Below, piece after piece: positions 8,826-9,281 of a DNA stretch of 64,000 nucleotides. Position 1 is the first letter of the stretch. Each line of letters starts with the position of its first letter. Source of the DNA: Escherichia phage C6; sequence record MW679410.1; one strand, written 5' to 3'. Both the position numbers and the translations under genes were made by a program. The notes beneath the pieces are model-generated. The model was not told the DNA's origin and did not search any database. It was given only the letters and a program-made list of their open reading frames with translations.

Positions 8826-9281
8826 TTACTTTAAATCCTCGGCCCAGTCGAGCTTCAAGGGTTCTTTATATTCTCTGTCTAAGACAACAGGAATCTGGAC
8901 ATCTCCACTAAAGCTAAGTGGTCCTACATTATAAGACAGGGTGATATGAGGGGTATAATCATCAAAATCGTGCGTAGCACCTAAGGTACGAGCATACTGA
9001 TGGCGGCATTTAAGATACTCTGAATTGAGAACCAAGACCAGGACAGGAGAATCACCGTGTTTCCATACTTCAAGATGTCCGGTCGAAGCAACTTCAAAAC
9101 TTCCGGATGCAACGGTGTATGGAACGTTGACTCTTGAATAGCAGATTGTAGAATGGAATTTTTCACGAGGAACTGGATTAGGAACCTTTAAAGTGCGCTG
9201 AAGGTTTTCCAGCGCATCTAAAGTTAATTCAGAGAATTTTGCAGCAACGTATAGACCTTGAGCAAAATCTTCGGTTTTCAT
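8826..9281 (-). CDS. 57B: gp57B-like 2H phosphoesterase (candidate Acb1 anti-CBASS cyclic-nucleotide phosphodiesterase)
   Basis: Two H-x-T/S-x motifs (HSTI, HITL) about 70 aa apart; synteny directly upstream of 57A-1-3; T4 57B = Acb1 is from memory. Confidence 0.7.

Follow-up and report, generated by a model that had tools for sequence, protein, structure and literature searches.

The gene that directly follows the tail-fibre chaperone gene 57A in Escherichia phage C6 raises the question whether this phage carries an anti-CBASS nuclease of the Acb1 type. We analyzed a window of 64,000 nucleotides (the whole stretch under study, sequence record MW679410.1), in which the candidate is an ATG-started open reading frame (ORF) on the minus strand (8826..9281; gene 57B, or acb1) encoding 151 aa plus a stop. 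A regular-expression scan of the translation for H-x-[TS]-x matches at exactly two places, residue 43 (HSTI) and residue 112 (HITL), in agreement with an earlier sequence-only reading that had placed the two motifs near these residues. The first catalytic motif, H43-S-T45-I (H44/T46 in T4), occupies 9144..9155 and the second, H112-I-T114-L (H113/T115 in T4), 8937..8948, both on the minus strand; next to the scan and a residue check, these coordinates were verified by hand against the window sequence. When the 151-aa protein was shuffled 20,000 times with its composition preserved, 19% of the shuffles also had two or more HxT/S motifs, so that the motif pair by itself is not beyond chance and counts as weak evidence. 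The significance of the motif observation comes from profile and pairwise homology, not from the motifs. Three plus-strand ORFs in the same region (8798-8911, 9025-9141 and 9239-9538) were discarded as spurious, being short or TTG-started and lying opposite the strongly conserved acb1 coding sequence.

Against the Pfam family PF23474 ("Anti-CBASS protein Acb1"), which has a curated gathering cut-off of 27 bits, the protein scores 197.4 bits (E 1.2e-58). Its residues 8-149 span profile positions 1-144 of 144, i.e. a full-length match; NCBIfam has no model for the family of this protein. The best match among all PDB chains, as found with phmmer, is the Acb1 of 7T26/7T27 (E 1.6e-58, residues 9-148), and MAFFT alignment to this chain, from phage FBB1, gives 65% identity over 140 residues. 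A single-sequence AlphaFold2 model was unusable (mean pLDDT 40.6, pTM 0.32) and the fold therefore rests on the 65% identity to the 7T26 crystal structure, which is an ample basis. Identity to T4 57B/Acb1 is higher still and amounts to 85% over the full length, the aligned T4 sequence being 57B from a derivative of that phage. A tblastn search of 50,697 phage records found homologues in 1,470, with a coverage of at least 80% in 1,461; identity is 100% for gene 57B in Escherichia phage IME08 and about 85% for the group of T4, T6 and RB32.

T4 gene 57B was found by activity-guided fractionation as a 3'3'-cGAMP-degrading enzyme and named Acb1 (Hobbs et al. 2022, PMC9117128), which agrees with what the sequence-only reading had said of this gene. 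Its proposal of a candidate Acb1-type nuclease in the 57B position is supported by the PF23474 match, the identities to T4 (85%) and FBB1 (65%) and the residue conservation described below. Judged by these comparisons, 8826-9281 almost certainly encodes the 2H phosphodiesterase Acb1, with which T4-like phages counter CBASS. The acb1 of C6 is intact and typical, an orthologue of a protein whose function and structure have both been studied by experiment, and in that sense is already known.

The name under which many orthologues have been filed points to another function. Both the description of phrog_755 and many RefSeq orthologue records say 'RNA ligase', which would make the protein a LigT-like enzyme, either a 2'-5' RNA ligase or a cyclic phosphodiesterase, with a role in the repair of RNA or tRNA, where it would act by sealing or processing RNA ends with 2',3'-cyclic phosphates. 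Such a role would fit the HxT/S chemistry that 2H enzymes have in common, the three tRNA genes located about 2.4 kb downstream, and a weak Pfam match to 2_5_RNA_ligase2 (PF13563, E 0.028). This match, however, stays at 14.9 bits where the cut-off is 27 and is confined to residues 61-122, compared to 197 bits for Acb1; membership of the LigT family was rejected on this sub-threshold score. The profile search that had been proposed as a check on the Acb1 assignment placed the protein in PF23474, the sub-threshold match to 2_5_RNA_ligase2 being its only competitor in Pfam. Moreover, the T4 orthologue degrades cyclic oligonucleotides and its deletion sensitises the phage specifically to CBASS (PMC9117128), and the database label is older than the Acb1 work. 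We regard an RNA ligase as hardly credible; the name in RefSeq and PHROGs is the older one of the same family, a legacy of the 2H/LigT similarity. Apyc1, the anti-Pycsar phosphodiesterase with a metallo-beta-lactamase fold, was likewise discarded as it would require an HxHxDH motif. The sequence-only reading had seen no such zinc-binding motif nearby, and none turned up when the entire 64-kb window was scanned in its six frames.

Having assigned the protein to Acb1, we compared it with the positions of known function. Crystal structures of Acb1 from FBB1 display a 2H phosphoesterase fold that is compact and bears a C-terminal lid (residues 145-152) that shuts over the ligand, while Y12, W74, F107 and W147 stack and E141 contacts the adenine N6; the active-site tetrad includes H44 and T46, and the H44A/H113A form of T4 Acb1 is catalytically dead (PMC9117128). 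In the T4 57B sequence every one of the nine residues stands at its published number (Y12, H44, T46, W74, F107, H113, T115, E141 and W147), and all nine equivalents are present in the window: Y11, H43, T45, W73, F106, H112, T114, E140 and W146. More specifically, the HxT/HxT tetrad H43, T45, H112 and T114 aligns to H44, T46, H113 and T115, and the stacking aromatics Y11, W73, F106 and W146 are the same as in T4, as is E140. According to the alignment with T4 and FBB1, the lid segment W146-AEDLK151 (8829..8846, minus strand; T4 147-152), including the stacking Trp, is untruncated, with WAEDLK against WADDLK in T4. By analogy with the orthologues, the lid of the C6 protein would presumably move over its ligand as well. 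A wider alignment took in ten homologues with 27-85% identity, among them those of Aeromonas, Acinetobacter, Vibrio and Salicola phages. Across all ten sequences the tetrad and Y11 do not vary, positions 73 and 106 are aromatic in 10/10, and position 140 is Glu in eight of the ten.

The alignment with T4 contains 24 differing columns, made up of 23 substitutions and the extra N-terminal Met of T4; none falls on a functional residue. The substitutions cluster at residues 2-8, 56-58 and 75-80, the last stretch, just after W73, containing five of the 23 (KHGDSPV against KTQDGST). These changes beside W73 could modulate substrate preference. An alternative reading is that the protein belongs to the Acb1 family but acts on a range of substrates shifted with respect to T4 Acb1, sparing or preferring for example 2'3'-c-di-AMP, 3'2'-cGAMP or cA3, and would then not match T4 Acb1 in function. 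Next to the five substitutions right after the stacking Trp and the three more at 56-58, two published observations speak for it: the specificity of viral 2H phosphodiesterases changes with variation in their 2H core (Doherty et al. 2025, bioRxiv 10.1101/2025.08.21.671373), and Panoptes guard systems, which fire upon depletion of their decoy nucleotides by Acb1 and which phages escape via mutation of acb1, select against a broad-spectrum Acb1 (PMC13577387). However, all reported ligand-contacting residues are the same as in T4, the specificity differences of Doherty et al. separate structural groups that have diverged much further than 85% identity, and T4 Acb1 and its close relatives belong to one broad-spectrum group. 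A shifted range is therefore considered very unlikely, and an Acb1 of the T4 type remains our preferred reading.

The best-supported mechanism for the C6 protein is then the published one of Acb1, as transferred by orthology. During infection the enzyme would capture the cyclic di- and trinucleotides of CBASS in a U-shaped pocket, as the T4 and FBB1 orthologues do. Y11, W73, F106 and W146 would stack on the bases, E140 would read the adenine N6, and the C-terminal lid would shut over the bound cyclic nucleotide. The H43/T45/H112/T114 tetrad is predicted to perform metal-independent acid-base catalysis, in which the adenosine would be strained and its 2'-OH would attack the 3'-5' bond, giving a 2',3'-cyclic phosphate intermediate. 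Hydrolysis of this intermediate would yield a linear 3'-phosphate product, and the CBASS effectors would thereby be starved of their activator. What the sequence comparisons show for C6 is the ORF, its membership of the family, the retention of all named functional residues and the conserved place of the gene; it is on the same analogy that we infer enzymatic activity, substrate range, expression timing and in vivo phenotype for the C6 protein.

The genomic surroundings are those of a Dhakavirus (JS98/IME08-like): with megablast, window positions 5000-13000 match best to Salmonella phage SHP1 (96.9% over 93% of the query). Upstream of acb1 the minus strand carries, in agreement with the PHROG assignments, gene 2 (11588..12424), gene 3 (10265..10855), gene 1 for a dNMP kinase (9504..10265), and 57A for the tail-fibre chaperone (9281..9511; phrog_1002, E 7e-26). 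The order 3-1-57A-57B matches the annotated genomes of IME08 and T4, as expected from the 57B position to which the gene had been assigned from sequence, and is common to C6, IME08, T4 and members of Tegunavirus, Tulanevirus, Lazarusvirus and Pseudotevenvirus. In SHP1 the annotation is badly shifted here, with 57A called 'tail tube protein' and gene 1 called 'endonuclease'.

Between genes 3 and 2 we find a homing endonuclease of 221 aa (10938..11603, minus strand; phrog_655, E 1e-55), for which Pfam gives no match and which looks like a free-standing mobile endonuclease. No CDS is annotated at this place in IME08; some of the other Dhakavirus records have a homing endonuclease annotated somewhere within the matched 8-kb region.

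The TAA of 57A overlaps the ATG of acb1 (TAATG), which suggests that both genes are co-transcribed and translationally coupled. This close association, together with the historical name '57B', could also be taken to mean that the protein is an accessory factor for tail-fibre assembly: it adjoins the chaperone gene, it is probably coupled to it in translation, and the 57A-57B pairing is conserved across Straboviridae. Nonetheless, the protein has no sequence relationship to any chaperone and possesses a complete 2H active site. T4 lacking acb1, which loses more than 300-fold on CBASS hosts, grows like wild type on hosts without CBASS (PMC9117128), showing that the gene is not needed for virion assembly. 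The probability of an assembly factor is practically negligible.

As to how acb1 is expressed, no promoter of its own stood out. Sigma-70-like matches within 57A and gene 1 (10, against 6.7 +/- 2.2 in shuffles) are not in excess, and from 9281 to 12900 the minus strand shows no MotA-box pattern of middle promoters. We therefore tentatively propose that acb1 is expressed by read-through or late transcription. Late promoter boxes are enriched in the window (18 against 7.3 expected), and the nearest T4-type box upstream of acb1, TATAAATA, is situated ahead of gene 4 (12888..12895, minus strand). This box is a candidate source of a late transcript running through 4-2-(HNH)-3-1-57A-acb1. In the stretch from this promoter to acb1, hairpins that resemble terminators are not enriched (4 against 2.1 +/- 1.2). 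Activity of T4 Acb1 appears from about 15 min into infection (PMC9117128), and by analogy a late source would be compatible with this late appearance. The same box occurs back to back at 12873-12880 (plus strand) and 12888-12895 (minus strand), at the place where IME08 has genes 4 and 53 annotated on opposite strands.

Directly 3' of acb1 we observe a very stable hairpin set within an early-promoter-like sequence GTTTACA-N16-TACTAT (8774..8824, minus strand), as found by promoter scan, repeat analysis and RNA folding. It is one of three minus-strand copies of an element of about 51 nt (8774-8824, 8205-8255 and 5253-5303; repeat family D1) with the layout GTTTACA, N16-17, TACTAT and AG(A/C)CCTATCAAAACAA. 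The first two copies form strong hairpins (z = -5.25, at -18.8 kcal/mol, and z = -3.94, respectively) and show a compensatory change from T-A to G-C in the stem, while in the copy at 5253-5303 the stem is lost. Going by their sequence, the three copies fit the PeSL (promoter-early stem-loop) cassettes of the T4 group, whose promoter consensus is TTTACW-N17-TAYWAT (PMC4122927). The copy at 8774-8824 may accordingly be a PeSL-like composite of terminator and promoter, ending the acb1 unit and starting a cassette of internal proteins. Elements 8774-8824 and 8205-8255 bracket two internal-protein genes, and in SHP1 a single gene occupies the slot of these two. This is consistent with PeSL-mediated shuffling of cassettes.

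The block of small genes downstream of acb1 (6456-8752) had been put forward as a plausible place for further anti-defence genes. Its first member is an internal-virion-protein gene of 74 aa with the N-terminus MKTYQEFITEAKK..., which is frameshifted (8527..8752, minus strand; phrog_8765 for the repaired protein). It is followed by an Ip9-like internal head protein (8253..8525, minus strand; phrog_7673), homologues of T4 trna.4 (7999..8196), trna.3 (7617..8045) and trna.2 (7326..7616), and two ORFs on the minus strand of 161 aa (6853..7338; phrog_2290) and 90 aa (6456..6728; phrog_14864), with a 19-nt inverted repeat (6773-6816) in between. These two ORFs lie between the trna.2 homologue and tRNA-Met, where IME08 has no annotated counterpart, and the block is followed by tRNA-Met, tRNA-Asn and tRNA-Arg. 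An Rfam search over 4000-13500 returned these three tRNAs only. Sequence searches gave no Pfam or PDB relative for any protein of the block, and the PHROGs read 'internal head/virion protein' or 'unknown function' without an anti-defence identity among them.

The frameshift in the gene at 8527-8752 goes with an A-run within 8703-8715, which counts seven A in the window against six in SHP1 and IME08. The repaired protein is found with tblastn as an intact single piece in 107 phage records; either the homopolymer was misread in sequencing or the gene is a true pseudogene.

An N-terminus of the type MKTYQEF/MKTYNEF is present in three minus-strand ORFs (5357-5974, 8253-8525 and 8527-8752), and we take it to be the sequence by which T4 internal proteins are targeted to the capsid. 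The T4 protein IPI* is an injected anti-restriction protein that acts against GmrSD. Because of this N-terminus and the IPI* precedent, an anti-defence role by analogy would be a reasonable idea for the two internal-protein genes of the block. The ORF at 5357..5974 (minus strand, 205 aa; phrog_2280, 'unknown function') has a middle part rich in Pro, Ala and Lys, and a late promoter box TATAAATA is located just upstream of it (6003-6010). This ORF probably codes for an internal head protein that has escaped annotation.

Two further readings go beyond the plain assignment, and taken jointly we consider them rather unlikely. According to the first, acb1 lies at the edge of a small and recombination-prone counter-defence islet, in which the PeSL-like cassettes 8774-8824 and 8205-8255 may flank a swappable pair of capsid-targeted internal proteins. 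These proteins might be injected with the DNA and neutralize host restriction in the way T4 IPI* does. According to the second, the substitutions at 75-80 tune the specificity of the enzyme; these Dhakavirus-specific changes might, for example, lower the triggering of Panoptes guards.

As a discovery the locus carries little weight, given that Acb1 has been known from T4 since 2022, that its structures are solved and Pfam lists it as a family, and that homologues occur in more than 1,400 phage genomes of the collection searched. The assignment does correct the labels 'hypothetical protein' and 'RNA ligase' in Dhakavirus records. The gene can also serve as a marker, as it predicts resistance of a phage to several CBASS types and vulnerability to Panoptes (PMC13577387), which is relevant to the choice of therapeutic phages.

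Among known systems, the sequence closest to that of C6 is the gene 57B product of IME08 (ADI55463.1), which is 100% identical across 151 aa, was deposited in 2010 and is annotated as 'hypothetical protein'. IME08 as annotated has neither the homing-endonuclease gene of the 3-2 interval nor the two tRNA-side ORFs. The IME08 57B CDS (HM071924.1, 3752-4210) is one codon longer and starts with ATA (Ile), which corresponds to window positions 9282-9284; this start is probably an annotation artefact, carried over from the 152-aa protein of T4.

The founding anti-CBASS nuclease, T4 Acb1 (gp57B, NP_049750.1), has the tetrad, the aromatics, the Glu and the lid in common with the C6 protein and occupies the same genomic slot directly after 57A. 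The two differ in that the N-terminus of the C6 protein has one residue less (MKTEDF against MMEFKDF in T4), and in that C6 is a Dhakavirus whereas T4 is a Tequatrovirus. For Acb1 of Erwinia phage FBB1 (7T26 apo, 7T27 in complex with 3'3'-cGAMP), fold and binding pocket are transferable by homology; FBB1 has Phe and Tyr at the positions of W73 and F106, two residues that C6 and T4 have in common, and a one-residue insertion after position 79.

More distant is viral 2H PDE-9 (9Q2G/9Q2Y, deposited as 'Anti-CBASS protein Acb1'). It belongs to the 2H superfamily and its His motifs align, but the sequence similarity to the C6 protein is marginal (E 0.023), its lid is N-terminal instead of C-terminal and its substrate preference is another (Doherty et al. 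2025, bioRxiv 10.1101/2025.08.21.671373). Finally, the LigT / 2'-5' RNA ligase family (PF13563) has the 2H HxT/S chemistry in common with the C6 protein.
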